IMG/VR virus record: IMGVR_UViG_3300010382_000019
Span: 263-64,262 of that record
Direction: 5' to 3' (one strand)
From: a virus
Length of the DNA: 64,000 nucleotides
Part shown: positions 16,759 through 62,036 of the stretch, piece after piece
Numbering within the stretch: position 1 is the first letter of the stretch
How the letters are laid out: each line of letters begins with the position of its first letter
Position numbers and translations under genes: made by a program
Notes under the pieces: generated by a model
Told to the model about the DNA's origin: nothing
Databases searched by the model: none
Seen by the model: only the letters and a program-made list of their open reading frames with translations

Positions 16759-16795
16759 AGAAAAGCCCTCCTTTCCCATTTGATTTATTTTCCTA

Positions 16796-17860: not shown

Positions 17861-18053
17861 TAGTACCAACGCCCCCCTTAGTTGTATTATATTGTATATT
17901 ATACAACATATTGCCATGAGGGTAAATATTTTTAAAAAAATTGTAAAAATATATTGTAAAAATATCAAATTTTATGGACATTATAAGTTAGCAACTATTG
18001 AATCATGTCTAATATATGCAGTTTATGCTTGATAATAAAAAAAGAGGGTAGCT

Positions 18054-22199: not shown

Positions 22200-22289
22200 A
22201 AGATGAGGCAGGACCGCGCGTTCTTGTGCGGATTTCTAGGATGTGTTCTAATACAATTAGTATTTTTACTATATAGTTTGGAGGATACA

Positions 22290-41120: not shown

Positions 41121-44100
41121 TTGGGGAACGATACAAAGAAATATACAATAGGCAGTGGCAACGACTTAGAATTGTTTAAGAAGAAGTTTAGCAGTAGTGC
41201 GACTGAAACCGAAAAAGATATAATTGCATATGAAGCAGATAATATGCTGTATAGCAACAAGGAGCCGGAAAGCAATAATGCTACCGGCTCTGTTTATGCT
41301 GCAAGGGCAATCATGAACATGTTGAAAAATAAGGTACAGGGGAAAGAGTCAGCAGGGGCAGGACCAAGGGCAAATACTGTTCCTACAAGTACATCTACGC
41401 ATACGATTTCACCTACACCATTGAAACATTACTCTCAAAATATGGCTATTGGCAGAAACAACAGCCCCGAACAGGTAAAGAAAATACAGAACGCTTTAGG
41501 TATAAAGGCAGATGGCATATACGGTTCCGAAACAAGAGCCGCAGTTATAAGATTTCAGAGAGATAATGATTTATTGGTAGATGGTATCGCAGGGCCTCAA
41601 ACATTAGGTAAGCTTTTTAGATATGCAAATGGAACAGGTATGGAGGATAAATATTCTGCATATGCTGATACATCTATTGCAAAAAGGGATTTGAATTCTT
41701 CGGCTGTAATTCCATCTACAGGCATGGAAAGTAAACAGTCAACATATGATGCGGAACAGATGCTAAAACCTTTTAGTGCAGTTTATAAACCGTCAGAATA
41801 TGGTACGTTGCCTAAGATAGATATTATTAAAAGTGCGTTGGAACAGAAGAAAACGGAAGAAGATAATCAACCTTCATGGGGTGAGGTTGCAAGTTCAGCA
41901 ATTGGGGAAGGAATAGCACAGACACAGGCAGGAATGTTTAACCTCCCCCGTAAGGTTATTGAAGGTGTTTCCATAGGGCTTGATAAAGTATTGCCCGATT
42001 CGATATATAACAAGGAAATGCAAAATAACGACCCCATAAAGAGGGCACTTGATAAGGTGGTAGCAAGCAACGAGCAGAGAGCAGCGCAGTACCAGAAAAC
42101 CTTGGATGCAACTAAGGGACTTAAAAAGTTTGTATCTCTTGGAATAGGTTCAATACCCCAGATATTAATGGCAGGAGTGGGCGGAGCTGCAATGTCCGGT
42201 ATAGGTGGAGCAACAACCTTGGGTAGTTCTTCTGCTATAAGCAAATTACCAACGGCAGCGAAACAATTAATTCCTTTCGGCACATTAGCAGGAAGTGGAT
42301 ATGCAAGAGAAGCAGAAAACGAAGGTGCAAGCTACGGTCAGCAAATGGCTTATGGACTCCTGGGCGGTACTGCCGAAGCTGCAACCGAAGTTCTCCCATT
42401 AGAGAACGCTTTGGATTTATTGAAAAAGTTTGGTGCAGGGAAAATAGCTGAAGAAGGTGCAAAAACACTTATAGGCAAGTATGGAAAAACCGCTATAAAG
42501 GTGATAAAGAACCTTGCATTAGAAGGTTTCCAGGAAGGTGTTATGTCACCATTGAGCAGAGGTGCACAGAAAATGACATACAAACCGGATTTAACTATGT
42601 CCGGTGAGAATGGAGTATTTGACTTACGATCTATGGGCGAAGATGCTTATAGCGGTGTAGCAATGGCTGTTATACTTGGAGCGTTAGGTTTACCATCCAC
42701 GTATGCTTCACATAGACTTGCAGAACAGATGATTGAAAGTGGAAAACCTATAACTCCTAACTCTATACAGAATGAATTAATACCAACTATGCAGCAGGAT
42801 ACCGAGAAAATAGAAGGGGAACAGACAACCGAAATAGGCGGACAGACAGGTGAGCAATCTCCTACGCCAAGGATAGACAACAAGAATACTGTATCGGAAG
42901 TTATAAATAGCAATCCAGTATCATCAATAAATTTTGAGGACTTGGAAAGTACAGGTTTACCAAAAGAATTAGTATATGCTTTAAGGCAGATTAAACTTGG
43001 CACTCTTATACCAAACGATATAGTTTCAAAATATCCTGAGTTACAGAGAATTTTAAATGGTGAAATTTCTGTAGATGATTTTGTTAATGTACTAGATGGT
43101 AGACAACTTATAACCCCAAGCATAGCTTTACCAGAGTTGCAGGAAGGGCAGCTAGATAATGGAGCGGTACAAACTATCAATAACAACAGTTTAATACCTC
43201 AAAACAACACTGAGCAAACAACAATAAATGAAAAAGGACAGGCGATAGAAACTATCGAACAACAGGGTAAAGACACCCCAAAAACTCATATAGAAAATGA
43301 AGTATCCACAAAATTATCCACAAATGATGCAATTGATTCTAAGGTGGGTGATGGTATGGAAAAAGAACCGTGGCAAATGACAAGAGATGAATTTGCCGAA
43401 CATATGGGTTATAATACAATTTATGATGGCGTTAATATACAGGAATTCAACGGTAGGGTCGCAGATATAAGTAATAGTTTGTCAGAAAAAATTGGAAACA
43501 GAATTTCTACTAGATTAAAAACTACTGACTTCCAAAAGGTATTGGACTTCTATAAGAAAAAATTCAATTTATCTGATATTAAAATTGAGTACGATTTACC
43601 TGTTGTGCAAGGGAAACCTCTTGCTGTGGCTGAAATGGGTTTTATTTCTGGAAACGGTAGTATTATTCATTTGCCGAAGAAGGATGCAAGAGTAAAACCA
43701 GAAAAAATATTAGGTTATTTACGGCATGAGATAGAGCATATCAAAGACAATGAAGAAGGATATACTTCTCAGTCAGCAACAAGAAGTAGAGTGAATGAAT
43801 CTCAAGCCAAAGGGAAATCTATACAGCAGATATACAGAGAATACTGGAAAGGACATCATAAAAACTATGATTTGTTTGAGCTTGATTACTATCATAAAGC
43901 TCTTGTACGAGATGCTATTGAAGAAGGCAAGGAGATACCCGATAGTGTACTCATACAATATTCTGATTTAAAGCAGGTTGATGTAAAAGCATATGATGAC
44001 AAAAAAGTATGGGAAATGCCTAAAACAGTATATATACAAAGAAATAGACATAACCCCAATGCTGATAAAGCACATAGGATAATGGTTGAAAAAGCTAAAG

Positions 44101-47100
44101 CCAGAGGCGAACATATACCGGATGAAGTAAAAGCAGATTATCCAGATATATTTGAAACTCCATCTATACAAGAAGGAGTCGGAAAAAAAATAAAGACAAA
44201 TAGAGAAACTCCTCCGGGAGTTTTTTCTATTGGAGATAATCAACAACCTGACACAGCACAACAGCCTACAGCAAAAGAAAAACCGCAAGCAGTAGAAAAT
44301 ATCATCGAAGAAAACAATCAACTTCAAAAGGGCAATAACAAAATATCATATGGCAGAGCAGGCAAAGTTGCTTATGAAAAATGGGGAAACAATGAATATG
44401 TTAATGCAGACCTTAATAAACCCGATGATGAGTATACACAAGCATTTACAAAATTCTTTGAGTTTTACTATAACAAGGGTTTAAATGGTGAAAAATTCCC
44501 TATGTTCAATGAGAGGTTCCCTGTAGGAAAGTATAATTTTCCACCGTTCCTTGAAGATATATTCTATAATGCAGGGATAAAAGACCTGGAAACAAAGAAT
44601 AAAAGAGAAAACCGAAAAGAGGAAGAAAGCGAACAAAATACAGCTACTAACGGAGGAAATAATGAAGAAAGCAAAACAGAAAACAAATTAGAACGTGATG
44701 CCCCTTTCCCAATGACCGAAAATGAAATTCTTGATATAGTAAAAAATTACTTAAATGAACTACAAAGTAATATGGAGCTTGAAGGACTAGACTTTAAAAT
44801 AGTTGATATGGCTTTGTACGGTAGCCGTGTAAGGGGAGACTATACGAAAAATTCCGATATTGATGTTCTCATTGAGTACGAAGGGGATGCAAGAGAAGAT
44901 GACATGTATAATGCTCTTAACTTCTCTGAAACCTATAATGGGAAACTGAAAATAGATGAAATTGAAGTAGATATTAACCCTATAAAAAAAGAAAAGTCGG
45001 GTACAATACGGGAATTTCTTGAGAGAAATAAGAATTTTGTAAAGAGGCCGGAGCTTTTAGGGACCAACAGTACAAAAGAAGAAAAGTCCTCTAAGACATT
45101 AGCAGATTATGGACTTGAAGTTAGAAAAACTAAAACGAACAGGGGTAACGATGTATGGCATGTACCTACTAATGATGAAACAAAGAAGTATCTTTCAATA
45201 TTCCATAAATTAAAGGCAAGGTGGTACAAGCCTCACCCCAAGGCAAAAGCAGTATGGGCATTTAACTATGATCCTACAGAAGATTTGTTAAAGGAATTGG
45301 CCGACTTTGAAGGTGATAATACACAAGAAAATACAGATAATAATGCCGGACAGGAAAGACGAATCATAAATAATGTAAACACAACAAGGGGGGTAAGTGA
45401 TTTATCAAAAGTGTCTGATGAAGGTATCATTGAAGGTATAGACTCCCTCCCAAAATGGATTGATCATTATGGCAAGTCAATAGAGAATTCTACTCCTTAT
45501 AAAGACAATTATAAAGATTTAGAAACACTAATAGCCGAAGCAAGGGAAAGGGGGTTATCCCTTAATAAGCAGCAAAATAACAAACCTTCAAAAGAAAATA
45601 TTGTCAAAAATCAAGAGAAAGAACATAATGAAAACAAAGAGGAAAATACAGGCACAAAGCCAATCAACAATACTGTTAAGCAAATTAAAGAGACATTCCC
45701 CGAAGGACCTGTTAAAAATAACCTCGCATGGCTTGATGCACAAGCAGAATTAGCAAGGCAAAGATTGAAAGAAAGGCACAAAAATATTCGGTTAAATGCC
45801 GGACTCCCTATGGATGATTTAGTTGATTATTCAATAATAGGTGCAGACAAGCTTGCTAATGGAGTAGTAGAGTTTTCGCAATGGTCAAAGGAAATGCTTG
45901 AGGAATTTGGAGATAACTTAAGGTTGTTTCTAAGAGCAATTTATGGGCAATCCGAGGCTATGCTTGAAATGTCACCAGAAGATATACAGGAAATGCTTGA
46001 ATTGGCTAAAAAAGAGGATAATAATACTCTAAAAGATTTGAACAAAACGGATGCTACAGGAACAACGGAAGAAAACATTCCTAATAGTCAGAAAGCGGAG
46101 CATAATGAAAGCAAAGAGGAAAATATAAAAGGTGGTGAAAAAGATGTCAAGCACGGATTATTGGATAGACAAGATGAAAGCATATCTGGAGGAAATGAAG
46201 GAAGAAGAACCTCAGAGGGCGAAAAAGAAACTGGAAAATCCGAAACTGCAAACGCATCTGGAAACACTAGCGGAAGAAGCACGGGACTTGGAACTCGAAC
46301 AACAGGAGATAATAAAAGAACGCAACCCGATAACGGAATATTGGAAGAAACCAGTAAATCAAATAACCCTAGTGGAAAGTCAGAGTTATCAGTATTGGAT
46401 AGCGGACACAGCGAAGGAAATAGCCTGGGATTTGATATATCCAAGAATTTAAACTATAGATTCAAGGATATTGAGTTAGATTTTACAAAGCCAAACTTTA
46501 ATGATAACTATAATGCTATTGAAGTTCTTAAAAAGATTGAGAAAGAGGACAGAGAAGCAACACCAGAGGAACAAACTATATTGTCAAAGTACAAAGGCTG
46601 GGGCGGACTTAAATCTGCATTTGTTGAACCCAAAAGAGGCTTTAATGGGCAACTTCATGGGCTACATCAGGTATTAACTAATGAGGAATTTAACTCTGCA
46701 AAAGCAAGCATTAGGAACGCACATTACACCTCATTGGAACTGATTGAAGCAATTTACAAAGGACTTTCAGCAATGGAATTTAAAGGCGGTAAAATACTTG
46801 AACCTTCAATGGGAACAGGTAATTTCTTTGGTATGCTGCCCCAAGATATAGCTAGTAAATCACATTTGTATGGTGTAGAACTGGATTCTATAACAGGTAA
46901 AATTGCACAAAAATTATATCCAAAAGCTAACATTCAAATATCAGGATTCCAAGATGTTAATTTTAAAGACAATTTCTTTGATGTTGTAATAGGTAATGTA
47001 CCTTTTGGAGAAGCAACACTAAATTATAAGGGTCATGGATATAAACTCCATGACTATTTCTTTGTAAAATCTATCGACAAGCTAAAAGAGGGCGGAATAC

Positions 47101-50100
47101 TTGTATTTATTACATCTAGTGGTACAATGGACAAGCTAAATGATAAAATGAGACAGAAAATTATGTCTCAGGCTGACCTTATAGCTGCATATAGACTGCC
47201 TGACACTTCATTCAAGACTAATGCAGGGACAGAAGTTACAACAGACTTGATTATCCTTCGTAAGCGTGAAGAAGGAAGACCATACGCAGGTGAGGAATGG
47301 CAGAAAGTTGGCAAAATTGAAGGTATTCCAGTAAATGAATATTTCGTTAATCACCCCAAAAATCTTCTTGGCCAATTGGTATATGAGAAAAATATGTATG
47401 CAAAAGAAAGGACTCAACTTAAATCAAATGGCAGAGATGTAATTGCAGAACTCACAGAAGCAATGCAGAAATTACCGCAAATATATTCCAATAAAAAAGG
47501 TGCTGAAGTAAAAGTTGAAAATGGTGAAATTGAAAATACATTTTGTTATAAGAAATTCACTTATGTAGAACATAATGGCGAACTGTACTATGTGAATAAT
47601 GATGTGTTAAAGCCAGTCAAACAAGAAAAACAGAAAATAAAGGATTACATGAAAATAAAAGAAACTTTTATGTCCTTGATTTCTGGGAACAATAAAGCCG
47701 CCGACAGGAAACAGCTAAATGAGTTATATGATAAATTTGTTGAGACAAACGGATATTTGAACTCAGCAAAAAATAGCAAGCCTTTCAGGGAAGATGCTGA
47801 ATATCCAAAGGTAGCCGGTATAGAAATTTACGACTACGAAACTAAAAAGTATAATAAAGCGGAAATTTTCACTAAGGATACTAATATTAAAAAGCGTGTA
47901 GAGAAGGTTGATACTTCCTATGACGCTTTAATTGTTTCTTTGGGGGAAACTGCCAGAATTGATATGAAACGTATGAGTGAATTAACTGGCAAACCAGAGG
48001 AAGTAATAGCCGATGAACTTTCGGAGCACATAACAAAAGACAATGACGGGGATTATCAATTAATTGATGTTTATTTGTCTGGGAATATTAGAAATAAGCT
48101 CAGTCAGGCTAAAAACCTTGCTAAAAGAAATCCTGAATATCAAAAGAATGTAGAACTGCTTGAAAAGGCAATGCCAATAGATAAAAAAGCTGATGAAATT
48201 ACTCCGCAGCTTGGTTCCCCCTGGATTGGTGCTGATTATATAAAAGAATTTTGTAGAGAACTTGGGGTAGATATAGAGGATAGTAGTTTTGGAGTTACCT
48301 ACGAACCATTGAAAGGAACATGGGCTGTTTATACTCCAAAGTCAAAGAACTCTTATAAAAAATACAATCAATATCAAACGAGAGAAATGTCATTCTTCAA
48401 ACTTCTTGAAAACACATTAAACATGAAAACCATTACTATATATGACAAAGATGAAAAAGGACATCGCTATGTAAATACTAAGGGGACAGAAAATGCAAGG
48501 CTCAAAGCGAAAATGCTTAAAGATGCTTTTGAGGAATGGATATTTAAAGACTCAGACCGTAGAAATGCTTTAGTTGAGAGATTTAACAAGTTATTTAACA
48601 GCTACAAGAATATGGAGTATGAAAAAGTAGCTAAATATCTGAGAATGAATGATGTTAAGAATGTCAATCTAAGGGCACATCAACTTAAAGCAGTAGCAAG
48701 AATCATTTACGGGGGGGATACGTTACTAGCGCATGGAGTAGGCTCAGGTAAAACATATGAAATGATTGGGGCTTCACATGAATTGATAAGGTCCGGTGTA
48801 TCCAATAAAAACATGATGGTAGTTCCGAATCACAAGTTAAGCGACTTTGAAGCAGATTATAAAAACATGTATCCAGATGCTAAGATACTTGTCGCTACTA
48901 AAAAAGATTTTGAGCCTGCAAACAGAATAAAATTATTCACAAAGATTGCCTCAAATAATTGGGAATGTATAATAGCACCTCATAGCAGTTTCCGTAAAAT
49001 TCCTATTTCCCCGGAAAAACAAGCTGAATATATCCAAACTGAGGTTGATGAATTAAGAAGTGTTCTTGATGAAATAAGGGTACAATCCGGCAAAAAGGAA
49101 AATACGCGGTTCATAAAAAACCTAGAAAATACCTTAGATAACATGGAGAATAAATTAAAAACACTTCTTGACACACCAAAGGACGAATCTGTTTACTTTG
49201 ATGATATGGGCATTGGAGCATTATTCGTTGACGAAGCACATAACTTTAAGAACTTGGCATTTTACACTAAGTTGAATGTGCCAAACGTTAAAAATTCAGC
49301 TTCACAAAGAGCAGCAGATATGTTTATAAAAACTGGATTGGTAAGGGAACAGGGAGGACGAATAATATTTGCTACAGCAACACCAATTACGAATAGTGTA
49401 TCAGAAATGTATAATATGCTACGGTTTGTTAGTCCATCTACTCTTGAAGAATCTGGAATAAAATCATTTGATGCATGGGCAGCTACATTTGGACAGATTG
49501 AAATGAAAATGGAAATGAGTACTGACAGCAAGTCATTTAGAGCAAAAGAAAGATTTGCTAAATATAAAAATGTTCAAGCAATGGTCGGTATGTTCAGGCA
49601 AGTTGCTGATGTAATAAAAACAAGTGATGTAATTAAAGACTTGCCTACCGCAGAAAGAATAAATGTTGTATCAGAGCCGAATGAATACCTTGAAGAATTT
49701 CTTAATGAAATTACACACAGGATTGAAAAAATAAAAAATAGCGGTAGTGATAGTTCAGACAATATGCTTCTTATAACAAATGATGGCAGAGCCGCAGCGA
49801 CAGACCTCAGATTAGTAAGTAAGCTACTTAATATCCCCAATAAAATCCTTGATATTGAAAACAGTAAAATTAATAAAGCAGTTGAAAACATATACAAGGA
49901 ATACAAGGAAGGAAGCAAGAATAAATTAACACAGCTTGTATTTCTGGATTTTGGAATCAATGAAGGTGGAGGAAGATACGGCTTTAATCTCTATGATGAT
50001 CTTATAAAGAAACTTGTAAATGTCGGCATACCGAGAAAAGAAATTGCTACAATCCATGAGGCAGTAACCGAGCAAGAAAAAGAACAGTTATTCGGTGATA

Positions 50101-53100
50101 TGAATAAAGGTATAATAAGAGTGTTAATTGGTTCTACTGCAAAAATGGGTGAAGGTATGAACGTGCAGCAAAGGGCAATAGCACTTCATCATCTAAATTC
50201 ACCGTATAGACCTTCTGATATAGAACAAAGGGAAGGAAGAATAATTCGCCAAGGCAATAAGAATAAAAATGCTAGGATATATACTTATATTCAAGAAAAG
50301 TCCTTTGACAGTTATATGTGGCAAATGTTATCCCGTAAGCAAGAATTTATATCACAAGCTATGTCTGGAGAGTTTATAGGCTCAGAACTTGAAGAAGTTG
50401 ACGATTTTGTACTGAGTGCTAATTCTGCTATGGCTATTGCCACAGGGAATCCGATAATTCTCCAAAAGGTAGAGGTAGACCAAAAGGTAAAAGAACTTGA
50501 AGGGTATAAGGCAGCTTACAGGAAAAATATGTATCAGTATGATGATATAGTAAAAAAATATCCCGAAGAAAATAAAAAGATACAGGAAAGAATTGAGGGC
50601 TATAAAAAAGACCTTGAAACATTAGAAAACCATGAATGGGTAACAGAAACAGCAAAAGACGATAACACAATTGAATCTTTAGCAAAATTTGAAATAAAAA
50701 TTGGCGATAGGGTTTATAACGATAAGGAAGATGCAGGGGAAGCAATTAGGGAAGCTTCAAAAGAGCCAAATGAAAACTACACAACGATTGGTGAGTACAA
50801 GGGGTTTAAATTAGTTTACCTTAAGTATAAAACAACATTAGGCTACATCGTTGATCTAATACTTAAAGGAGAAGAACGGTATGAAACTTCATTGTCAGAA
50901 TCTAATACAGGAACCATTCAAAAGCTAGACAATGCGCTTAATAAGATTTCTCCTGAAATAGAAGAATATAAGAAAGTTATAGAGGAAAGAAATGCAGCAA
51001 TAGAAGAAGCAAAAGAAATTCTTGCAAAACCATTCAAGTATGAGAAGGAACTTAGCGATGCACTTATGGAACAGGCTAGAATAAATGGCGAACTTGGCAT
51101 TAATGTTGCTGAAATCATAAACGAAGATAAGGTTTCAGACTTTGAAGATACAGACGGAACAGAGGAAGATGAAGAAGAAAATAAGAATAGTTCTAAAAGA
51201 AGTACTAAATCCTATTCTATGGTAGGACAAGCAGCGCAAATGCCAAATGGTGATGAAAGTTCCAAACTTGAAGATACAAAAACCGTTGATGAAATAGTTG
51301 CTATCATCGAAAAGACTATCAAAGTACCTATAAGGACAGGCAAGTTTAGACAAAGAGCCTACGGTATATTTAAGGAAGTACCGGAAGTAATTCGTACAAA
51401 GGTAACAAATGACCTACCTACAATATGCCATGAAGTGGGACATTACCTAGACAAAAAATTTGGGCTGGATAATCTGCAATTTAAGGATGAACTTATGGCA
51501 TTGGGTAAGCCTGTCTCAAGAAAATCATACACTAAAGAACAAGTAAGGGCAGAAGGTATAGCGGAATTTGTCAGGTTGTACTTAACGGATCAGCGACAGG
51601 CAAGACTTAGGACTCCAAAATTCCTACAGTATTTTGAAACTGTGCTTGACAGAGATAGCCTTATGTCACTGAACAGCATAAGAACAGACATACTAAAGGT
51701 TGTAAATTTATCTGATGTAGACAAGGTTAAAAATGATATATCTGTAGGTGAAACAAGAAAGGCTACAAAACAAGAGAAAGGCTTCAAGGAAATAAGACAA
51801 AAATTATATGATGCTTGGATTGATGAATACGCGCCGTTCACCAGAGTTGCCAAAAGAGCTATTGAAGCAGGATATAACGGTGAAGCTTTGAATACTGCTG
51901 TAAAAATCTATAGAGGCTTTGAAGGGAAAGTGCTTGGTAATATCACTATGGCACAAATTGACCTTAACGGGAATGTTGTAGGTAAATCCTTTGATGAAAT
52001 ACTTAAGCCTATTAAGAAAAATGAGGTTGATGATTTCAGGGCTTATATGGTATCACGAAGGGCAATAGACTATCATCGAAGGAATATGGTTATGCCACAA
52101 ACGTATTCGACTTACTACAATACATTAATAGCTTTAGACAATAAATATCCTCATTTCCAGGATACATTTAATGAGCTTAGAGAGTGGGAAAACAACGAAA
52201 TGCAGCTTTTAGTTGATAGTGGTGTGTATAGCCAAGATACAGTTGATGAAATGAAGAAAAACAATCCTAATCATGTACCTCTTTACAGAATACAAGAGGC
52301 TGTAGAGGCGGTTTATGGGGGTAGTGGTTCAACCTTGGGACAGTCTAAAAAGGTTGTCAAACAGGCTAGGGGTTCCGGCAAGACAATAATTGACCCTCTT
52401 GAAAGTATGATATTTAATGCTTTTATTATACGAAGGGCAGCAGAAGCTAATCAAATAAATTCTATGCTTGCAGATATGGCAGACAACATAGAGGGATTTG
52501 GTGAATTAGTCGAAGCTGTACCGCCGGGAGTAAAGGGGTTTACTTTCAATGTTGAGGAAATAGGGAAAACTTTGCAGGGTTTGCTAAAGGATGATGTACA
52601 AGCTGAAATAGATGCAAGAAGGAAGAAAAATCCTAATGATAATATGATTCCATACTTGGAGGTACAGAAGGAGCAGATAAATGTAAAGAATATGAATCTG
52701 GACAAGCTTGTAACATTGTTCAGAGCAAACTACAGGGAAAGAGATAACGAGATAACAGTATGCAGGAACGGAAAACCAAAGCTGTATCAAGTTGAAACGG
52801 AACTGTATAGGGCTATCAAAGGGCTTAACAGGGAAGCAAGCCACTTCATTATAAGAGCATTGAATGTGCCTAAAAGGATACTCCAAACCGGAGCAGTAAC
52901 AACCTTGCAATTTGTAATGAGAAACATGGCAAGAGATACTTCAACATCATTGATTCAATCGGAGGCAGGCATAAATCCTATAGATATTGTAAAAGGATAT
53001 GCCAGCGCATTTAAAAAAGACAAATGGTTTAAACAATGGGTATTGTCCGGTGGTGCAACCGAATATTTGCAGGTAAACGAAAGAACACAAGTACAGAGCA

Positions 53101-54413
53101 TATTTGATGATGTTATGGGTTATACCTTAATTGAAAAGCTTCAGGATGCAATTAAGAAACCGACAAAGGAAAAACTAACGAGATTACTATTCACTCCAAT
53201 AAATAAAATAAGGGGTGCTATGGAATGGTCAGAAGCAGGTCCAAGGGCAGCAGAGTTTAGAAAAGCTGTAGAAAAAGGATATAGTCAAGAGAAAGCTGCT
53301 GCATTGTCAAGAGACTTATCACAGGACTTCAAAAGGTATGGCTATTATGGGAAGGAACTTAATAAGATAACAGCTTTCTTTAATGCAAACTTGCAAGGTA
53401 TTGAAAAACAGTTAAGAACATTTAGGGCGCACCCGTACTTAACTTTGTTAAGAGGGTTTCTATATGTGACTTTGCCGACAATGTTATTGTATTTCTGGAA
53501 TGACGACAATGATGAATACAAAAGTATGGCAGTATGGAGGAAAGCATTATTCTACAATATACCGTTGGGCAATAGAAAAACTGCAACACACTTCTTGTCG
53601 ATACCAAAGCCCTATGGTTGGGGTTACTGGTTTGGAGCTTTACTGGAAACAATACTTGACGGTATCAAGAACGATGACCCTAAGATGTGGAAGGATATTC
53701 GAGATAACTTTGTAATTAATTTTGATATTCCACTTATTCCTTCTGCCGTATCTCCAACACTTGAAACAATGACGAACAAAAGCTGGAACAAAACACCTAT
53801 AGAGAACTATGGCGATAGCTTTAAACCCTCATATTTAAGAAAGAATGAAAATAGCAGCATGACCGCAGTCGGACTTGCAAACATATTAAAAGATGTTCCA
53901 GGAGTAAATAAAATATCTCCTAAACAATTAGACTATTTAGTAAAAGGTTATGGCGGTTCAGTAGGAGATTTCTTCTGGCGATTGCCGGATACAGTTAAAA
54001 AAGGTGTGGAGCTGCCAACGGATTACACAAACTATCCGGTTATAAAAACTTTCATCACGGACACGGCATATTCCAACAGGTCAATAAATGATTTCTACAC
54101 TTATGGAAAAGAGCTAAACGACAGATTGAAGGAAGCCCAAGAAACAGGAACGTATAGAGCAATACCTCATTTGTCAGAGAATGAACAAAAAGTCTTACAG
54201 TCGGCTATCAAGAACGCAACAAAAGAATACAACTCATTAGCCGATGAATTTTCCGATGCAAGGGGAAAGATCAGAGAGATAAAGGCAAACAGTAAATATA
54301 GTCCGGCGGAAAAGAAGCTCAGGGAAAGAGAAATACTATTAAAGGTGGCTAAAATTGCAGAAAAGTTCATCAAAAAATACGAAGCATTTAAGAAAAATAA
54401 CAAAATAAAGTAA
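41121..54413 (+). CDS. Giant polyvalent (DarB-like) virion protein: PG-binding, HExxH, nucleotidyltransferase, N6-adenine MTase, SNF2 helicase, LPD-type C-terminus
   Basis: ADGIYGSET/VDGIAGPQT, LRHEIEH, YGSRVRG..SDIDV, LEPSMGTG..NVPF, HGVGSGKT..DEAH..EQREGRIIRQGN, CHEVGH. Confidence 0.9.
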   Translation: MGNDTKKYTIGSGNDLELFKKKFSSSATETEKDIIAYEADNMLYSNKEPESNNATGSVYAARAIMNMLKNKVQGKESAGAGPRANTVPTSTSTHTISPTPLKHYSQNMAIGRNNSPEQVKKIQNALGIKADGIYGSETRAAVIRFQRDNDLLVDGIAGPQTLGKLFRYANGTGMEDKYSAYADTSIAKRDLNSSAVIPSTGMESKQSTYDAEQMLKPFSAVYKPSEYGTLPKIDIIKSALEQKKTEEDNQPSWGEVASSAIGEGIAQTQAGMFNLPRKVIEGVSIGLDKVLPDSIYNKEMQNNDPIKRALDKVVASNEQRAAQYQKTLDATKGLKKFVSLGIGSIPQILMAGVGGAAMSGIGGATTLGSSSAISKLPTAAKQLIPFGTLAGSGYAREAENEGASYGQQMAYGLLGGTAEAATEVLPLENALDLLKKFGAGKIAEEGAKTLIGKYGKTAIKVIKNLALEGFQEGVMSPLSRGAQKMTYKPDLTMSGENGVFDLRSMGEDAYSGVAMAVILGALGLPSTYASHRLAEQMIESGKPITPNSIQNELIPTMQQDTEKIEGEQTTEIGGQTGEQSPTPRIDNKNTVSEVINSNPVSSINFEDLESTGLPKELVYALRQIKLGTLIPNDIVSKYPELQRILNGEISVDDFVNVLDGRQLITPSIALPELQEGQLDNGAVQTINNNSLIPQNNTEQTTINEKGQAIETIEQQGKDTPKTHIENEVSTKLSTNDAIDSKVGDGMEKEPWQMTRDEFAEHMGYNTIYDGVNIQEFNGRVADISNSLSEKIGNRISTRLKTTDFQKVLDFYKKKFNLSDIKIEYDLPVVQGKPLAVAEMGFISGNGSIIHLPKKDARVKPEKILGYLRHEIEHIKDNEEGYTSQSATRSRVNESQAKGKSIQQIYREYWKGHHKNYDLFELDYYHKALVRDAIEEGKEIPDSVLIQYSDLKQVDVKAYDDKKVWEMPKTVYIQRNRHNPNADKAHRIMVEKAKARGEHIPDEVKADYPDIFETPSIQEGVGKKIKTNRETPPGVFSIGDNQQPDTAQQPTAKEKPQAVENIIEENNQLQKGNNKISYGRAGKVAYEKWGNNEYVNADLNKPDDEYTQAFTKFFEFYYNKGLNGEKFPMFNERFPVGKYNFPPFLEDIFYNAGIKDLETKNKRENRKEEESEQNTATNGGNNEESKTENKLERDAPFPMTENEILDIVKNYLNELQSNMELEGLDFKIVDMALYGSRVRGDYTKNSDIDVLIEYEGDAREDDMYNALNFSETYNGKLKIDEIEVDINPIKKEKSGTIREFLERNKNFVKRPELLGTNSTKEEKSSKTLADYGLEVRKTKTNRGNDVWHVPTNDETKKYLSIFHKLKARWYKPHPKAKAVWAFNYDPTEDLLKELADFEGDNTQENTDNNAGQERRIINNVNTTRGVSDLSKVSDEGIIEGIDSLPKWIDHYGKSIENSTPYKDNYKDLETLIAEARERGLSLNKQQNNKPSKENIVKNQEKEHNENKEENTGTKPINNTVKQIKETFPEGPVKNNLAWLDAQAELARQRLKERHKNIRLNAGLPMDDLVDYSIIGADKLANGVVEFSQWSKEMLEEFGDNLRLFLRAIYGQSEAMLEMSPEDIQEMLELAKKEDNNTLKDLNKTDATGTTEENIPNSQKAEHNESKEENIKGGEKDVKHGLLDRQDESISGGNEGRRTSEGEKETGKSETANASGNTSGRSTGLGTRTTGDNKRTQPDNGILEETSKSNNPSGKSELSVLDSGHSEGNSLGFDISKNLNYRFKDIELDFTKPNFNDNYNAIEVLKKIEKEDREATPEEQTILSKYKGWGGLKSAFVEPKRGFNGQLHGLHQVLTNEEFNSAKASIRNAHYTSLELIEAIYKGLSAMEFKGGKILEPSMGTGNFFGMLPQDIASKSHLYGVELDSITGKIAQKLYPKANIQISGFQDVNFKDNFFDVVIGNVPFGEATLNYKGHGYKLHDYFFVKSIDKLKEGGILVFITSSGTMDKLNDKMRQKIMSQADLIAAYRLPDTSFKTNAGTEVTTDLIILRKREEGRPYAGEEWQKVGKIEGIPVNEYFVNHPKNLLGQLVYEKNMYAKERTQLKSNGRDVIAELTEAMQKLPQIYSNKKGAEVKVENGEIENTFCYKKFTYVEHNGELYYVNNDVLKPVKQEKQKIKDYMKIKETFMSLISGNNKAADRKQLNELYDKFVETNGYLNSAKNSKPFREDAEYPKVAGIEIYDYETKKYNKAEIFTKDTNIKKRVEKVDTSYDALIVSLGETARIDMKRMSELTGKPEEVIADELSEHITKDNDGDYQLIDVYLSGNIRNKLSQAKNLAKRNPEYQKNVELLEKAMPIDKKADEITPQLGSPWIGADYIKEFCRELGVDIEDSSFGVTYEPLKGTWAVYTPKSKNSYKKYNQYQTREMSFFKLLENTLNMKTITIYDKDEKGHRYVNTKGTENARLKAKMLKDAFEEWIFKDSDRRNALVERFNKLFNSYKNMEYEKVAKYLRMNDVKNVNLRAHQLKAVARIIYGGDTLLAHGVGSGKTYEMIGASHELIRSGVSNKNMMVVPNHKLSDFEADYKNMYPDAKILVATKKDFEPANRIKLFTKIASNNWECIIAPHSSFRKIPISPEKQAEYIQTEVDELRSVLDEIRVQSGKKENTRFIKNLENTLDNMENKLKTLLDTPKDESVYFDDMGIGALFVDEAHNFKNLAFYTKLNVPNVKNSASQRAADMFIKTGLVREQGGRIIFATATPITNSVSEMYNMLRFVSPSTLEESGIKSFDAWAATFGQIEMKMEMSTDSKSFRAKERFAKYKNVQAMVGMFRQVADVIKTSDVIKDLPTAERINVVSEPNEYLEEFLNEITHRIEKIKNSGSDSSDNMLLITNDGRAAATDLRLVSKLLNIPNKILDIENSKINKAVENIYKEYKEGSKNKLTQLVFLDFGINEGGGRYGFNLYDDLIKKLVNVGIPRKEIATIHEAVTEQEKEQLFGDMNKGIIRVLIGSTAKMGEGMNVQQRAIALHHLNSPYRPSDIEQREGRIIRQGNKNKNARIYTYIQEKSFDSYMWQMLSRKQEFISQAMSGEFIGSELEEVDDFVLSANSAMAIATGNPIILQKVEVDQKVKELEGYKAAYRKNMYQYDDIVKKYPEENKKIQERIEGYKKDLETLENHEWVTETAKDDNTIESLAKFEIKIGDRVYNDKEDAGEAIREASKEPNENYTTIGEYKGFKLVYLKYKTTLGYIVDLILKGEERYETSLSESNTGTIQKLDNALNKISPEIEEYKKVIEERNAAIEEAKEILAKPFKYEKELSDALMEQARINGELGINVAEIINEDKVSDFEDTDGTEEDEEENKNSSKRSTKSYSMVGQAAQMPNGDESSKLEDTKTVDEIVAIIEKTIKVPIRTGKFRQRAYGIFKEVPEVIRTKVTNDLPTICHEVGHYLDKKFGLDNLQFKDELMALGKPVSRKSYTKEQVRAEGIAEFVRLYLTDQRQARLRTPKFLQYFETVLDRDSLMSLNSIRTDILKVVNLSDVDKVKNDISVGETRKATKQEKGFKEIRQKLYDAWIDEYAPFTRVAKRAIEAGYNGEALNTAVKIYRGFEGKVLGNITMAQIDLNGNVVGKSFDEILKPIKKNEVDDFRAYMVSRRAIDYHRRNMVMPQTYSTYYNTLIALDNKYPHFQDTFNELREWENNEMQLLVDSGVYSQDTVDEMKKNNPNHVPLYRIQEAVEAVYGGSGSTLGQSKKVVKQARGSGKTIIDPLESMIFNAFIIRRAAEANQINSMLADMADNIEGFGELVEAVPPGVKGFTFNVEEIGKTLQGLLKDDVQAEIDARRKKNPNDNMIPYLEVQKEQINVKNMNLDKLVTLFRANYRERDNEITVCRNGKPKLYQVETELYRAIKGLNREASHFIIRALNVPKRILQTGAVTTLQFVMRNMARDTSTSLIQSEAGINPIDIVKGYASAFKKDKWFKQWVLSGGATEYLQVNERTQVQSIFDDVMGYTLIEKLQDAIKKPTKEKLTRLLFTPINKIRGAMEWSEAGPRAAEFRKAVEKGYSQEKAAALSRDLSQDFKRYGYYGKELNKITAFFNANLQGIEKQLRTFRAHPYLTLLRGFLYVTLPTMLLYFWNDDNDEYKSMAVWRKALFYNIPLGNRKTATHFLSIPKPYGWGYWFGALLETILDGIKNDDPKMWKDIRDNFVINFDIPLIPSAVSPTLETMTNKSWNKTPIENYGDSFKPSYLRKNENSSMTAVGLANILKDVPGVNKISPKQLDYLVKGYGGSVGDFFWRLPDTVKKGVELPTDYTNYPVIKTFITDTAYSNRSINDFYTYGKELNDRLKEAQETGTYRAIPHLSENEQKVLQSAIKNATKEYNSLADEFSDARGKIREIKANSKYSPAEKKLREREILLKVAKIAEKFIKKYEAFKKNNKIK
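46144..46452 (+). CDS. Candidate overprinted gene (102 aa, TnpV-like) in the +1 frame of the giant ORF
   Basis: AAGGTGGTGA RBS, ATG, globular helical sequence nested in a low-complexity linker. Confidence 0.55.
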   Translation: MSSTDYWIDKMKAYLEEMKEEEPQRAKKKLENPKLQTHLETLAEEARDLELEQQEIIKERNPITEYWKKPVNQITLVESQSYQYWIADTAKEIAWDLIYPRI

Positions 54414-55776: not shown

Positions 55777-57420
55777 TTAAACGGCTATATCTCTGGCTTC
55801 TTCTGTAAAGGAACCGGGAATTCCGATGTCCCTATAGCGGATAATAATCTTTTGTTCTGCAGTTCTGGAGTAGCGTTCGCCCCGTTCACCAACTTCAATA
55901 CGTTCAATAAACAGGTGCAGGATTTCGCTGGTTAACTCCGGAATCTCGGTGTAGCGTTTGGCTTTATCAATGAACCGTGAGACATTGGCTATAGATTCCT
56001 GCAGCTTAGTCATCCGCTCTACAGCCTGGGGGATTCGCTCCTTCAGGCTGTTTTGCTCATTGTTATAATCGGCGGACAGCATCCGGAACTGCTCGTTAGT
56101 TATTCGTCCCAGTACATTATCCTCATAAAGACGCTTAAAGAGTGCGGTCAGTTCGGCATCCCTGCGGCGCATGGCATCCAGCTCCCGCTGGAGACGGTCG
56201 ATCTCCCTTTTGGTTTCAGTGCTGTTCCTACGGTTGATGTGCTGCACGAACAGCGATTCCTGCTGCCTTGCAAAATGAGTAACTCGGCGCAGGTCATCCA
56301 GAATAATTTCCGCTAGCTGGATTTCCCTTATGTAGTGAGCGGTGCAGACTTCCTTACCGCGTTTCCTGTAGGTGGAGCACATAAAGTTGTTTTTTATTGC
56401 ATCCATGGTATGTGCCCGGTGGAGTACCATCGTCTCTCCGCAGTCGGCACAGTAGACGAGGCCGGAGAACATGTTTTGTTCCGCCATGTTCGCTCTGCGC
56501 CGTTTATGCTTCCGGATGTCCTGCACAATGCTCCAGGTTTCCTGTGTTACCAGAGGCTCATGTGTGTTTTCAAACCGCAGCTGCTCTGAGGCAGGCCGCT
56601 CAATCCGCTTCTTGTTTTTGTAGGATATCGTGGTGTACTGCAGGCTGATGGTGTGCCCAAGATAGACCTCATTTTCAAGAATGTCTGCAACAGATCGGCT
56701 ACTCCAATTATACGGTCGTGCAGTATCTACACCGGTCAGAAGAACTCCCGTTTTACTGTAATAATAATTTCCGGGCGTGAGAACCTGTTCCTTTTTAAGC
56801 TGCCCTGCTATCTGGCTGGGGCCTTTTCCTCCCGCACAGAGACTGAAAATTCTCTGCACCACAGGTGCGGTGTCCTCATCGGGGATGATTTTCTTTTTCG
56901 GGTTTTTCTCATCCTTTTTATAACCATAAGGTGCTCTTGTCCCTACTCTCTCACCCCGCTCCGCCTGAGCCTTTTTCACTGCGCGTATTTTCCTGCTGGT
57001 ATCCTTGGCATAAAAATCGTTGAACAGGTTCTTAAACGGGGTGAAGTCGTTATCACCGTAGAGGCTGTCCACATTATCATTGATGGCGATGAAACGGATG
57101 CCATAGCTGGGAAACACAAGCTCTGTGTACTGCCCGACCTGCAGATATTCCCGTCCCAGCCGCGACATGTCCTTAACTATAATAGTGGATACCTCACCAT
57201 TTTCCACCAGCTTCATTAATTCATTCCATGCGGGGCGGTTGAAGTTTGTACCGCTGTAGCCATCGTCAGAAAGGAACAAAGTGTTTTCAAACCCGTTGTC
57301 GGCAGCATATTTTTCCAGCATCATCCGCTGGTTCTGGATGCTGTTGGAGTCGCCCTCCCGGTCATCCTCCTGGCTGAGCCTGCCATATAAAATTGTGAAT
57401 TTTTGGTTCGCCTGTTTCAT
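55777..57420 (-). CDS. TnpX/TndX-like large serine recombinase (DUF4368-type C-terminus)
   Basis: YGRLSQED, SDDGYSGT, VKDMSRLGR, CADCG..FMCSTY. ATG 57420 follows AAGGAGG (ORF track gives 57486). Confidence 0.92.
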   Translation of the reverse strand: MKQANQKFTILYGRLSQEDDREGDSNSIQNQRMMLEKYAADNGFENTLFLSDDGYSGTNFNRPAWNELMKLVENGEVSTIIVKDMSRLGREYLQVGQYTELVFPSYGIRFIAINDNVDSLYGDNDFTPFKNLFNDFYAKDTSRKIRAVKKAQAERGERVGTRAPYGYKKDEKNPKKKIIPDEDTAPVVQRIFSLCAGGKGPSQIAGQLKKEQVLTPGNYYYSKTGVLLTGVDTARPYNWSSRSVADILENEVYLGHTISLQYTTISYKNKKRIERPASEQLRFENTHEPLVTQETWSIVQDIRKHKRRRANMAEQNMFSGLVYCADCGETMVLHRAHTMDAIKNNFMCSTYRKRGKEVCTAHYIREIQLAEIILDDLRRVTHFARQQESLFVQHINRRNSTETKREIDRLQRELDAMRRRDAELTALFKRLYEDNVLGRITNEQFRMLSADYNNEQNSLKERIPQAVERMTKLQESIANVSRFIDKAKRYTEIPELTSEILHLFIERIEVGERGERYSRTAEQKIIIRYRDIGIPGSFTEEARDIAV

Positions 57421-57521
57421 AAAGTACCTCCTTCTTATTGGCAAACCGATACGGAAAGCAGTATTGCGGAAGTTCCGCAACACCAATCATACCGGAGGAT
57501 TTACCGCAAGTCTACTGGCTT

Positions 57522-57947
57522 TCATAAAGAATTCCGCTCTGCTTCCAGTTCCTTATCAATAAGGGAAAGCAGCTTGTCGGTCGGTGTCGCAGTAGCTTCT
57601 TTAGGAAACACAGAGCAGACGGCAAACTTTTTACCACCCACAATCATCCGGCGTTCCAAGCAAAGCTGCTCCTGTTCCTCCTTCAACTCGGTGTCATCAA
57701 ACAGTAAAACCTCCTTGCCGTCGAATTCTTCGCTTGCAATTCCCGCTGTGTCATAGCAGCCCCAGAGTCCGGTTTCCAGATAGTGACGCTCCACTGCTTC
57801 AATCCGTCTTGTACATAAACGTTTTTTCATTCTGCCACACCTTTCAAACACGATTTCGACTTTAGGTATCTGTGGATCATTATCCCGGAGTATTATGATG
57901 CATTTTAGAAATGCGTAAGCTATAAAGCTTTTCTGATTTTCTCTCAT
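57522..57947 (-). CDS. TnpW-like transposon-encoded protein
   Basis: C-terminal VGGKKFAVCSVFPKEATATPTDKLLSLID; directly upstream of the recombinase. Confidence 0.55.
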   Translation of the reverse strand: MRENQKSFIAYAFLKCIIILRDNDPQIPKVEIVFERCGRMKKRLCTRRIEAVERHYLETGLWGCYDTAGIASEEFDGKEVLLFDDTELKEEQEQLCLERRMIVGGKKFAVCSVFPKEATATPTDKLLSLIDKELEAERNSL

Positions 57948-57968
57948 GAAAATTTCCCCCTATCATCA

Positions 57969-58367
57969 TTATTTGTGCTGATACAGGTATGCCTGTTCAA
58001 AGGTTGGAACACTGCCAAGTGCTTTCACTTCCTCCGAACAATTTTGGTGCAGCCGTTGCAGTTGGTTATCCGTTACATGCATTTGTGCAGCAATTAAATG
58101 GCATAGTTTTGCTAATTCTACAGAAATTTTATACTGCCCGGTGCCGAGAGATTTGCCGACCTGCTCCATTTTTAGTTGAGCAGCAGAGGTGAACATCTCG
58201 TCAAAGAACTTCGGATTCTGTTCGGCATTTAGATATCCGGAATAAAATTCAATGGCCTTCTCTACAAATTCGTTGCGGGAATCCGCTTGCGCACGCCTTA
58301 GATTATCATCGCATAATTTCAAATGTGCCAATGTTACTGCGAGACCGGATTTGACTCTTTTGTCCAT
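57969..58367 (-). CDS. RHH-type putative relaxosome accessory protein
   Basis: SRNEFVEKAIEFY; family recurrent in clostridial integrative elements. Confidence 0.5.
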   Translation of the reverse strand: MDKRVKSGLAVTLAHLKLCDDNLRRAQADSRNEFVEKAIEFYSGYLNAEQNPKFFDEMFTSAAQLKMEQVGKSLGTGQYKISVELAKLCHLIAAQMHVTDNQLQRLHQNCSEEVKALGSVPTFEQAYLYQHK

Positions 58368-58691
58368 GTATATTTTCCTCTCTTTTTATATGTATTTTTC
58401 CCTGGTACCCTATTGCAACACCCTGTTTAGCGGCAGTAAAATGCGGGGTTTTGCTGCCCATTTTCGCTTTATAACCACGTTTGCGGTACCAACTACCCAA
58501 TTCCGACTACCTAAGAGGTACCATCCCCGACCCGCATTGCGGGGCGATGTGAGCCGGAGCGAGGGGCGTGTACGGCCCCGCTCCTTTAACCTGCAACGCC
58601 TTAAACCGTATGGTTCACCTCCAAATCACCAGTTTTCTTCTGCACAGAAGTTAAGGATGCAAGGATGCAAAGTATATAAGACATTACACCC

Positions 58692-59660
58692 TTACACTCT
58701 TGGATCAGGAAGCTGCCAGTACCATTGCCCGCCAAGCCTGACAGATTGAATATTAAGATTCCTTTTTGCAATCTTCACCGTCCTCTCTGAGATGCCCAGC
58801 TTTTCCGCCTGGCGGAATACCTCTTCTGCGGGAACAGGTACATTGAGTATTTCCTTGAGCGTTGTTTCCATCTGCATTGTTTTAGTCTGCACCGAACCAG
58901 TGCCGGAGAGTACTTCATCCACTGTGGCATCGCAATAGCCTTTCCATTGGAAACCATTTTCCGCATCCAATGAAAACGCAATGGACTTTCCCTCCGGAGC
59001 CAGGCTGCTTTTGTCGTGTGCAACGATTCGGACAGAAGGATCGCTTTTTAACCGTCCGACCAGAAGCACACTCCTTGCCGCTGCCCGGAAGTCAATGGAG
59101 CCGAGTCCGCGGTAGGAAGCTTTCAAGCCCTGCGCCTTGTTCATGTGACCAATCAGGACCACGGCACAGCCGGTACGGTCTGCCATGGCACACAAACGCT
59201 TGATCACCGGTCGTACCTCATTGGCACGGTACATGTCCACATCACAGCCAAGATATGCCTGCAGCGGATCAAGCACAATCAGGCGGGCGCCTGTTTCCCG
59301 GACAGCCTGCTCCAGCCGCTCATCGCATAACGTTAGCTCCCGGTCGGACTCATCGATGACCAGTACACGGGAACAGTCTGCGCCCGATTGCTCCAGACGT
59401 GGTTTGATGGTATCCGCCAGCCCGTCCTCAGCCGACTGATAAATGACATTGATGGGTGAGCTTGCCGTATCTTCCTCCGGAAGAGACTCGCCATTGGTCA
59501 GCAGCGCAATCATCGCCAGAACAAAAGATGTCTTTCCTTCTCCGGGATCGCCTTGAATGATGGTGACCTTTCCGTAAGGAATATACGGATACCAAAGCCA
59601 TTGCACCTGTTCAGCTTTAATGTCGCTCATCCGGATGAGACTAGATTTCTTTTTCTGCAT
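58692..59660 (-). CDS. AAA_25 family ATPase (RepA-like helicase)
   Basis: WLWYPYIPYGKVTIIQGDPGEGKT, IVLDPLQAYL, IGHMNK, GSIDFRAAARS. Confidence 0.9.
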   Translation of the reverse strand: MQKKKSSLIRMSDIKAEQVQWLWYPYIPYGKVTIIQGDPGEGKTSFVLAMIALLTNGESLPEEDTASSPINVIYQSAEDGLADTIKPRLEQSGADCSRVLVIDESDRELTLCDERLEQAVRETGARLIVLDPLQAYLGCDVDMYRANEVRPVIKRLCAMADRTGCAVVLIGHMNKAQGLKASYRGLGSIDFRAAARSVLLVGRLKSDPSVRIVAHDKSSLAPEGKSIAFSLDAENGFQWKGYCDATVDEVLSGTGSVQTKTMQMETTLKEILNVPVPAEEVFRQAEKLGISERTVKIAKRNLNIQSVRLGGQWYWQLPDPRV

Positions 59661-59989
59661 ATTCTCACCTCCGTTCCAAACTTATATTTGAAAATGCAAT
59701 CCCCATTTTGCAGAAGAGTTTGCTTTGTACTTTAACACCATGCTCCCGAACAGGTTCCTGCCCTGCGGCCTTGCGTGACCAACACGGCGTTCTCATTTCA
59801 TTGGCACGCTCGCCTGCGTTTTCAAGGTCTTGGCATGCTTTGTCTGAAAGTATCCACTCAGGGCACGGCTATTCAATTTTAAATCTTTCTTTTGTCCCAA
59901 TTTCATTTTCACAAATGCCGTGGTAGAATTATATAGAGAATACAAATAATTTATTTTGCGAAAATCCATTATTTGCAGAGGAGGGCAGT

Positions 59990-61078
59990 ATGTTTCCGTA
60001 TTTCAAAGTTTTCATCGACAATCAGTCGTTCATGAACATTCTCTGGTACACAAACGAACAAAAGCATGGCTTCCAGCGCAACGAGCAGATCGGGGAAGGG
60101 CTGGTGCGCTTCTGCGAACTTGATCTGACTTCCCTTGAAGAAAAATTAAAAGAGCTTGCCGACATACCGCTGACAAGCACGAATTACGACGTGATACGAA
60201 ATGTTATTTTCGATGCGGCGGAGCTATTAAAGGACAAGCACGACTATGCATTTTTCTTCCTGGTAGGAGCGCTGAACAATATCCTGGCAACACCAATTTA
60301 TTTTAAGGATGATATTGAAGCGCGGAAGCTGGAGCAGCTGCAAAGCTGTATTATGATTCTGAAGGATGTGCTGACATTGCAGGATATATTTGAATATGCC
60401 CTGCACTTTTGTCTTGACAAGGACAATCTGTCTGACCGGTCTACAGCCGAAAGACTGGTAGGCTTCTATTTTCAGTTTCCGGATTTGAGCAAGTTTACCG
60501 TGCAGACGGGTTTTGCGGTAGCTCCGGTGAAAAAAGGTGCTTTGGATTATATAAAGGTATGGGATATAAACGATCAGGGAATTACAGACACAAAGCAAAC
60601 ACTGGATGCTATTCATAATGATCGTTCCAAGGTCAGCCTGCTGCCGTATTATCACATTCAGGCACTGGACGAGATGCTGTTCTTTGAGTTTATGGAAATG
60701 CTCAAGCGCGGTATCCAGGTAAAGCGGTGCAGACTGTGCGACCGGTATTTCGTAATGATTGACAAGCGCAAACGGGAGTATTGCGGAAGATCATATGAAA
60801 ACGGGAAGAGCTGCCGGGAAGTCGGTCCGCTGCTCCGTTATGAACAGCAGCTCCAATCTGATACCTATCTGCAGAAATTTGAAACGGAGTACAACAAGAT
60901 TTACTCCCGTTTTTACCGCGCCGATGGCAAACTTGATTCCGAGCGATCCGGTAAGGATATGACACGGGAGGAGTTCTGGGTGTGGTCAAAGGCTGCGTCC
61001 AAGGCAAAGGCCGATTACCGGAAAAGATTGATAACCGGAGATGAGATGATGCGGATTGTAAGGAATGGTATGTTATAG
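59990..61078 (+). CDS. DUF6076-like protein with Zn ribbon
   Basis: KRCRLCDRYF...EYCGR...CREVG. Confidence 0.65.
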   Translation: MFPYFKVFIDNQSFMNILWYTNEQKHGFQRNEQIGEGLVRFCELDLTSLEEKLKELADIPLTSTNYDVIRNVIFDAAELLKDKHDYAFFFLVGALNNILATPIYFKDDIEARKLEQLQSCIMILKDVLTLQDIFEYALHFCLDKDNLSDRSTAERLVGFYFQFPDLSKFTVQTGFAVAPVKKGALDYIKVWDINDQGITDTKQTLDAIHNDRSKVSLLPYYHIQALDEMLFFEFMEMLKRGIQVKRCRLCDRYFVMIDKRKREYCGRSYENGKSCREVGPLLRYEQQLQSDTYLQKFETEYNKIYSRFYRADGKLDSERSGKDMTREEFWVWSKAASKAKADYRKRLITGDEMMRIVRNGML

Positions 61079-61183
61079 CTGATAGCTTCTAAACCGTGCG
61101 AAACGAACAGGAGAAAGAAAAAACGCATTCGGCCTGTCAGAGCTTTATGCGTTCTTTTTACATGCTTAATGCGGTGTAAAGTT

Positions 61184-62032
61184 CTATGGAGACGTTGTAT
61201 CAGGCTTATATGAAGGCGGGTTATTGTTCTTCTCCGGTGTTTCAACAAACACAATATGGATTTCATCACCGGTCAGCTCCGGCAGCTCTGAGGACGATGC
61301 GGTTGCTTCCCTCACCGGCGGTTCTTCGTCTCCCATATATCCGATTTTGTGTCCGTTTTCGTACATATCCTTAGCGACAGTAACGACGCTTCCTTCACCA
61401 TTGTCCTCTATCCATCCGAAGCCGGGCACCCATATACACTGCTTGCCATTGATAACGGCTTTTGATCCCGGCACTTCACCTGCGCCCATGATACCTACCA
61501 TCTTGTTGATGTCACCTTCGCCGTCTACTCTTGTACCGCCGCCCATCTGTCCGATTTTGTTTCCGGTGAGCTCATCGCCGGGGCTTCCGATCGTTGTTCC
61601 CGAACCGCCGCCCTCATCCTTGATCCATCCGAAGCCGAGAATGTAAATTTGTTTCTCGCCATTGACTACGCGCGTGTCCCCCATGTGTGGTTCAGGGGGT
61701 GATGAGGATGGTTTTGGGGACTTGGTTTTCTGCACCAGCTCAGGTGCAGGTGTTTTTTCTTCTGATGATGATAATTCTTTGTTCATGGTTGGAGCGCCGT
61801 GTTTCGAATTCTTTGATTCAGGTACTGTGACAGCTTCCGGTTCGGAGGTAATGGTATCGGCAGAGAAAATAACTGGGGGCGGCTCTTCCGGCTTTGTCTC
61901 AATTTTGAGGATTACGGCGGGTTTTACCTGGTCGGCGGGTACTTTCCCGTTCTCGGCGCTTTGAGGCCACACAGAAGCACACAGGGCGACACAGGCGGCG
62001 ATTATGATGCCGGTGATAATATGCTTCTTCAT
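61184..62032 (-). CDS. DUF6550-like secreted Pro-rich protein
   Basis: Signal peptide, Pro/Glu linker, duplicated GFGWI motif. Confidence 0.65.
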   Translation of the reverse strand: MKKHIITGIIIAACVALCASVWPQSAENGKVPADQVKPAVILKIETKPEEPPPVIFSADTITSEPEAVTVPESKNSKHGAPTMNKELSSSEEKTPAPELVQKTKSPKPSSSPPEPHMGDTRVVNGEKQIYILGFGWIKDEGGGSGTTIGSPGDELTGNKIGQMGGGTRVDGEGDINKMVGIMGAGEVPGSKAVINGKQCIWVPGFGWIEDNGEGSVVTVAKDMYENGHKIGYMGDEEPPVREATASSSELPELTGDEIHIVFVETPEKNNNPPSYKPDTTSP

Positions 62033-62036
62033 TTGA

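Follow-up and report, generated by a model that had tools for sequence, protein, structure and literature searches.

A TnpV-like protein of 102 residues is very probably encoded by a real and conserved gene lying in the +1 frame inside the giant DarB-like gene of a provirus, immediately ahead of its methyltransferase domain. The DNA analysed here (the window; 64,000 nucleotides) comprises nearly all of the 64,659-base provirus (∼64.7 kb), with terminase, portal, major head and tail genes present. The length of the nested ORF is indecisive; it is conservation in relatives that settles its status as a gene. The main features are as follows.

41121–54413, + strand: host gene for a predicted DarB-like polyvalent protein of 4430 aa (domain profile matches, gene order)
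46041–46460, + strand: low-complexity linker of the giant protein, ∼aa 1641–1780 (composition; stop-free across the nested gene)
46129–46138, + strand: Shine-Dalgarno-like (SD) site AAGGTGGTGA, which the host frame translates as K-G-G-E; the start region is unstructured
46144 (ATG)–46452 (TAA), + strand: probable nested +1-frame gene for a 102-aa TnpV-like five-helix protein (ORF, profiles, predicted fold)
46458–47417, + strand: LPD36-like helical domain and adenine methyltransferase (motifs GWGG, ATPEEQ and NVPF)
48663–50255, + strand: SNF2-type ATPase/translocase lobes, aa 2515–3045 (domain profile matches)

The host gene is placed 3′ of the head and tail genes and 5′ of genes for a holin-like protein and an M15 peptidase, and its product contains PG-binding, nucleotidyltransferase, adenine methyltransferase (MTase), SNF2 ATPase and LPD38 domains together with two HExxH motifs. 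An LPD36 GxGx motif (GWGG), a TP motif (ATP), an NPP(Y/F)-type motif (NVPF) and SNF2/Helicase_C matches are all present, and by these signatures the protein is a DarB-like methylase-helicase dyad (PMC5512222), sharing with P1 DarB both the LPD36-MTase-SNF2 arrangement and a place in the virion module. DarB travels in the virion, and its protection of DNA extends only in cis (PMC5512222); the Burkholderia phage JC1 homologue of the DarB-like protein is virion-associated (PMC9144972); for the giant protein of the window, its place after the head and tail genes is the one feature that points to a putative packaging in the virion. The nearest relatives of the giant gene are in other viral contigs and in elements of Clostridia, and the bacterial host of the provirus is thus probably a clostridial bacterium.

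A preliminary description of this DNA had reported a +1 ORF of about 102 aa ending at 46452, placed just before the methyltransferase and preceded by the same ribosome-binding site as the gene at 35037, and each of these points was borne out. The termini are as it quoted, with an ATG at 46144; AAGGTGGTGA is found at 46129, at 35019 (ahead of the ATG at 35037) and at 4001, against a chance expectation of 0.03; and the LPD36-MTase segment begins directly past the nested stop codon. An alternative in-frame GTG at 46132, which would give 106 aa, is an unlikely start because it lies inside the SD site. The nested run is the longest alternative-frame stop-free stretch of the giant gene (107 codons, the runner-up having 81), and the ORF has the only alternative-frame start in that gene with an SD of at least 5 nt that opens more than 30 codons. 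Codon shuffling produces a +1 run of at least 107 codons somewhere in the giant gene in 2.8% of trials and synonymous recoding does so in 8.5%, and the chance value at the linker itself is 1.7%; length is weak evidence for a gene (chance 3–9%). The codon log-likelihood of the nested frame is gene-like at 0.18, and the 122 other +1 windows are all lower (mean −0.72, maximum −0.14); its synonymous codon choice is not phage-adapted. When the nested gene of the window is recoded synonymously 6.9 host-frame stops are expected, and the host frame stays open with a probability of 0.0004, which argues that both frames are kept in the window copy. An internal promoter is unsupported, the best candidate being a near-chance 9/12 match at 45997, and an antisense ORF at 46088–46444, whose family was not seen among the matches listed in an all-against-all search, was set aside.

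The resemblance to TnpV and the helical character claimed in the preliminary description both held. The window ORF matches Pfam TnpV (PF14198) weakly, with 15.6 bits and an E value of 0.016, below the gathering cut-off of 27; a profile built from long-loop members that we selected, and from which the window ORF was excluded, gives 20.5 bits and E 8.5e-5, with none of 2000 shuffles scoring as high. It is the top non-member in other general profiles (E 0.04–0.08), and for each of four profiles no ORF in the window scores better. In hhalign the window ORF as a single sequence matches TnpV with E 0.0008, and a profile of the phage nested set matches that of the ICE TnpV proteins at 96.9% (E 1.8e-10), the outcome of a comparison with TnpV that had been proposed as a check; 18 of 40 phage-type nested members match PF14198. 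An AlphaFold2 model of the window protein (pLDDT 95.8) contains five helices in the TnpV order, and its nearest Atlas models are of TnpV (TM 0.66 over 89 residues), a match that is partly circular because an alignment of TnpV-like proteins guided the fold prediction. Motifs common to the TnpV family are W/Y..K..YL.E..P, L..HL...A and a C-terminal A.E.....LIY. The window protein is thus like TnpV of Tn4451 in profile, predicted five-helix core and motifs, and differs in falling below the Pfam cut-off, in residing within a phage virion gene, and in having no N-terminal β-hairpin (Y...GDYLIP) of the kind seen in ICE TnpV, which is absent from the phage-type members as well. Its net charge is −6, and the phage nested proteins are mostly acidic (median −5). 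The window copy is the most divergent that was scored, an edge member of the family; no homologue was found in 5.8 billion proteins, and other searches with the window protein returned one repeat-rich false match, no viral contigs and weak PHROG matches. Atlas feature matches were below 0.9 and to plant proteins, a Foldseek search for a solved or viral fold gave none at E≤0.001, and the best VIA matches (Z 6.6 and 5.8) are usual for helical bundles. We conclude that the protein is in all likelihood a remote TnpV homologue, and not a member of PF14198. Kinship of TnpV to DUF1896/PG0816 (PDB 2APL) is a weak lead only: one family member matches in Pfam at E 0.008 and a profile at E 0.16, none being significant alone, and 2APL aligns to a TnpV model with Z 5.5 (rmsd 2.5 Å over 61 residues, 21% identity), a match not seen for the window model.

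About 190 loci were collected by way of the neighbouring methylase after searches with the small protein had failed. The first two phage relatives each contain a 113-aa +1 ORF with an SD in the same place, and in conjugative elements a canonical TnpV is encoded in the +1 frame ∼0.7–4 kb ahead of the methylase. Ten nested ORFs served as seeds for an iterated profile, which collected 156 of 3511 candidate ORFs; of these, 142 are nested in the +1 frame, seven are nested in hosts that are broken further on, and seven are free-standing. Among 180 deduplicated DarB-like loci, 141 have an intact host ORF with a profile-detected TnpV-like gene nested in its +1 frame, in keeping with the conserved +1 ORFs that the preliminary description had suggested looking for. 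The remainder comprise five identified by position only (the window included), seven with a broken host, ten at a contig edge and 17 with none, this last group including P1, PBC5 (a frameshifted record in which the gene is present) and several short or broken host genes; at none of the 180 loci is the family in the +2 frame of an intact host ORF. In the phages the nested stop lies 23–179 nt ahead of the MTase, and by chance such a run would be expected in 3.6% of 230-nt stretches with a GC content of 45% or less and in 10% overall. An SD of at least 5 nt precedes 42 of 51 phage nested starts, compared to 169 of 930 matched controls (18%).

Cultured phages with a gene nested under a DarB-like gene infect Vibrio, Erwinia, Klebsiella, Pseudomonas, Agrobacterium, Ochrobactrum and Microcystis, and the nested gene is not annotated separately in any of the 21 matching records, just as had been anticipated of annotation pipelines. 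Plasmids of Xylella, Pseudomonas, Streptomyces, Listeria and Campylobacter also contain it; their annotation either drops the nested gene or truncates the host gene, and several records shorten the host to fit it. In the Xylella, Pseudomonas and Streptomyces plasmids just ∼40–50 host residues are encoded upstream of the nested gene. Since nesting persists in the plasmids of all five genera, it follows the enzyme module and not the capsid. The nested gene is absent from P1 darB and from the Agrobacterium Ti plasmid homologue and is therefore dispensable, and free-standing tnpV genes also exist without a helicase in cis.

Several individual loci deserve mention. A free second tnpV paralogue is present in seven ICE loci, where it lies at the end of the giant gene or past it (L059:8941–9312, L125:5370–5741, L166:8977–9348, L051, L058, L174 and L185). 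In phage PBC5 (L029, 1800–2434) a frameshift, probably a sequencing error, splits the giant gene into orf33 and orf23 and runs orf33 into the nested frame. Where the nested gene usually lies, locus L055 has a 68-aa +1 ORF (4591–4794) that is preceded by a strong SD and shows no clear family similarity, a possible replacement by another nested gene. The short plasmid host genes start with a basic run followed by Q.S/T.FDF or SLFDL (L194:5509–5645, L196:5494–5642 and L192:5407–5490), a motif just ahead of the nested gene that we take to resemble a sliding-clamp-binding motif; RefSeq omits the host N-terminus in L194 and L196.

As judged from dN/dS, the nested frame is under purifying selection in the relatives, and the host linker drifts yet stays stop-free. 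The nested-frame values are 0.21 for 13 disjoint phage pairs (including two near-duplicates) and 0.25 for 22 ICE pairs, whereas the host frame over the nested gene gives 1.9 and 1.67 respectively, and the MTase 0.09 and 0.08; these values come from relatives only, with no pair containing the window copy, because no close homologue of it was found. In both phage and ICE pairs substitutions are mostly at third positions of the nested frame, and in the nearest pair (L001 and L002) identity is 74% for the nested protein, 47% for the host frame and 86% for the MTase. The low nested dN/dS places the constraint on the small gene, with the replacement excess in the linker as its shadow. The nested sequences diverge in step with those of the MTase (Mantel 0.53), a correlation that demonstrates no more than co-inheritance, and the closest nested relatives of the window protein are encoded by phages that also rank among the nearer ones by methylase.

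The preliminary description had regarded the main frame here as a G/S/T/E/R-rich linker and the small gene as overprinted on it. The main frame is indeed a linker, polar and of low complexity, residues 1641–1760 being rich in G, S, E, N and T with 5–15% hydrophobic residues. Coding in two frames likewise stood; since the small gene is the constrained frame and the linker a drifting passenger, "nested" fits better than "overprinted", and the pattern suggests read-through of an older gene by the giant one in preference to the overprinting of a newer gene on it. Near the linker edge is a 57-nt direct repeat, 75% identical between 45592–45648 and 46069–46125, that brackets a small helical segment (∼aa 1520–1640) and whose second copy ends just 5′ of the nested SD; the pair may mark a domain gained through duplication or recombination. 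A similar segment, as judged by eye, is found ahead of the nested gene in phage PBC5.

Embedded genes of this general type have precedents. The comS gene lies inside srfAB on the same strand in a shifted frame, with its own SD, and is co-expressed. Rz1 within Rz of Bcep22-like phages (PMC9144972) is likewise a complete small gene in a shifted frame with its own SD and co-expression. In contrast to both, the nested frame here is the constrained one and the host frame a disposable tether, and TnpV nesting spans phages, ICEs and plasmids of several phyla. An out-of-frame HNH gene in the methylase of mycobacteriophage ShiLan (PMC11855218) is also a hidden gene read as a stop-free loop; however, it is a selfish homing insertion with a patchy distribution, whereas the TnpV-like gene shows no signature of a nuclease, is almost universal and diverges in step with its host. 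In the literature searched, tnpV figures as a free gene whose role is either unknown or "transposase/Xis", and the survey of polyvalent proteins (PMC5512222) never mentions TnpV or gene overlap. Nested genes, TnpV and DarB are each known; their linkage, with tnpV nested in DarB-like genes, was not found described in the literature covered, most subscription journals lying outside its scope.

We tentatively favour the reading, at somewhat less than an even chance, that the small protein is expressed together with the methylase-helicase and holds it inactive until it is delivered. The giant virion-delivered protein would come from ribosomes that pass through the linker in the host frame, while other ribosomes would start at the internal SD and ATG on the same late mRNA and make the 102-aa TnpV-like protein separately, as a partner dedicated to the methylase-SNF2 module. 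It would bind the module in the cell where both are made and keep it soluble and switched off; the enzyme would be freed once it and the DNA have entered a new cell, the setting in which DarB counters type I restriction in cis. Because DarB is packaged and acts only in cis, the simplest role that would suit delivery by capsid and by conjugation alike is that of a brake or chaperone; that the protein acts in this way in the producing cell, and stays there when the enzyme leaves, we rate as close to evenly balanced, though on the lower side, with inhibition as the larger part. Nesting would tie the partner to the module, ensuring co-expression and joint movement when giant genes gain or swap N-terminal domains. 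A bolder and correspondingly more doubtful extension is that TnpV may be generally the cognate inhibitor or chaperone of DarB-like methylase-SNF2 enzymes, and that free tnpV copies in parasitic mobilisable elements may disarm or exploit the enzyme of the helper. Inter-protein covariation (111 pairs, Neff 61) yielded noise only and no binding site.

The small protein could instead be an escort that chaperones the giant protein into the capsid or conjugation channel, like Ulx for P1 DarB. Ulx, encoded beside darB, "aids DarB localization" (PMC9024508) and is present in P1 and in the Thermus Lalka phages (PMC11437467), and as P1 is without the nested gene these might be two solutions to one need. 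P1 darB too is accompanied by a small helper gene, but Ulx lies after darB and not inside it (PMC9024508) and is not homologous, scoring −1.0 to −1.9 bits against three family profiles. A single family would, in addition, have to function in packaging into capsids and in type IV secretion alike, and small mobilisable elements that integrate into and break the snf2 gene of ICEs bring their own tnpV (PMC9815147), which would be odd for a private escort; we regard this role as rather unlikely. The same elements (PMC9815147) would be compatible with an independent small effector, either a host-targeted anti-defence protein or an element regulator, that is simply co-transcribed and trapped by giant-gene read-through. 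Free tnpV genes occur downstream of giant genes as well as in mobilisable elements, those of the Tn4451 type (PMC3158075) among them, and the acidity of the proteins agrees with such a role. However, phages, ICEs and plasmids from several phyla maintain the position relative to the methylase, the nested and MTase sequences diverge in parallel, and late expression, as would be expected in phages, is odd for an early anti-defence protein unless it is packaged; we consider an independent effector improbable.

An excisionase-like recombination factor, as was once postulated for TnpV of Tn4451, appears scarcely credible: the postulate is repeated (PMC3158075) and the provirus does have serine recombinases, but the role was proposed from weak homology, the protein is acidic and modelled as all-helical, and the gene sits within a late virion gene and is found in non-integrating plasmids too. 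The fold matches of the model include no Xis. That there is no separate product here, the ORF being a chance run, a relic in decay or a stretch fused to the methylase through frameshift or restart, is also very improbable. Such a reading draws on the attainability of this length by chance, on the divergence of the window copy with no close homologue, and on the old PBC5 record that frameshifts into the nested frame. Against it, the SD, ATG and full length are intact, the position and family motifs are kept, and the predicted fold is confident; a slippery heptamer near the nested stop was found at 0 of 151 loci and a host-frame restart codon at 1 of 58, and joining of the frames was rejected.

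Elsewhere in the provirus, the segment at 55777–62342 contains a second large serine recombinase (DUF4368, 55777–57486, minus strand) and genes for an AAA_25 ATPase, DUF6076, DUF6550 and DUF6809, and has the look of a mobilisable element in its own right, adjacent to the phage lysis genes; no free tnpV is present within it. A minus-strand block at 10105–17968 encodes a radical SAM/SPASM protein, an MFS transporter, a family 5 solute-binding protein and two TPR proteins, possibly peptide-modification or signalling cargo, and a PLD-like (HKD) domain protein is encoded at 22203–23099, upstream of the terminase region.

Collectively, these observations point to the nested gene as an overlooked partner of a widespread anti-restriction enzyme. 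The orphan TnpV family would thereby gain a fixed partner and a testable job, and the DarB-type anti-restriction machine of phages, ICEs and conjugative plasmids would gain a missing part. The window contributes a highly divergent phage member that Pfam misses, and the family exposes a systematic annotation error in which the nested gene is missed and, in several plasmid records, the host gene is shortened. It also represents an unusually wide instance of conserved two-frame coding in prokaryotes.
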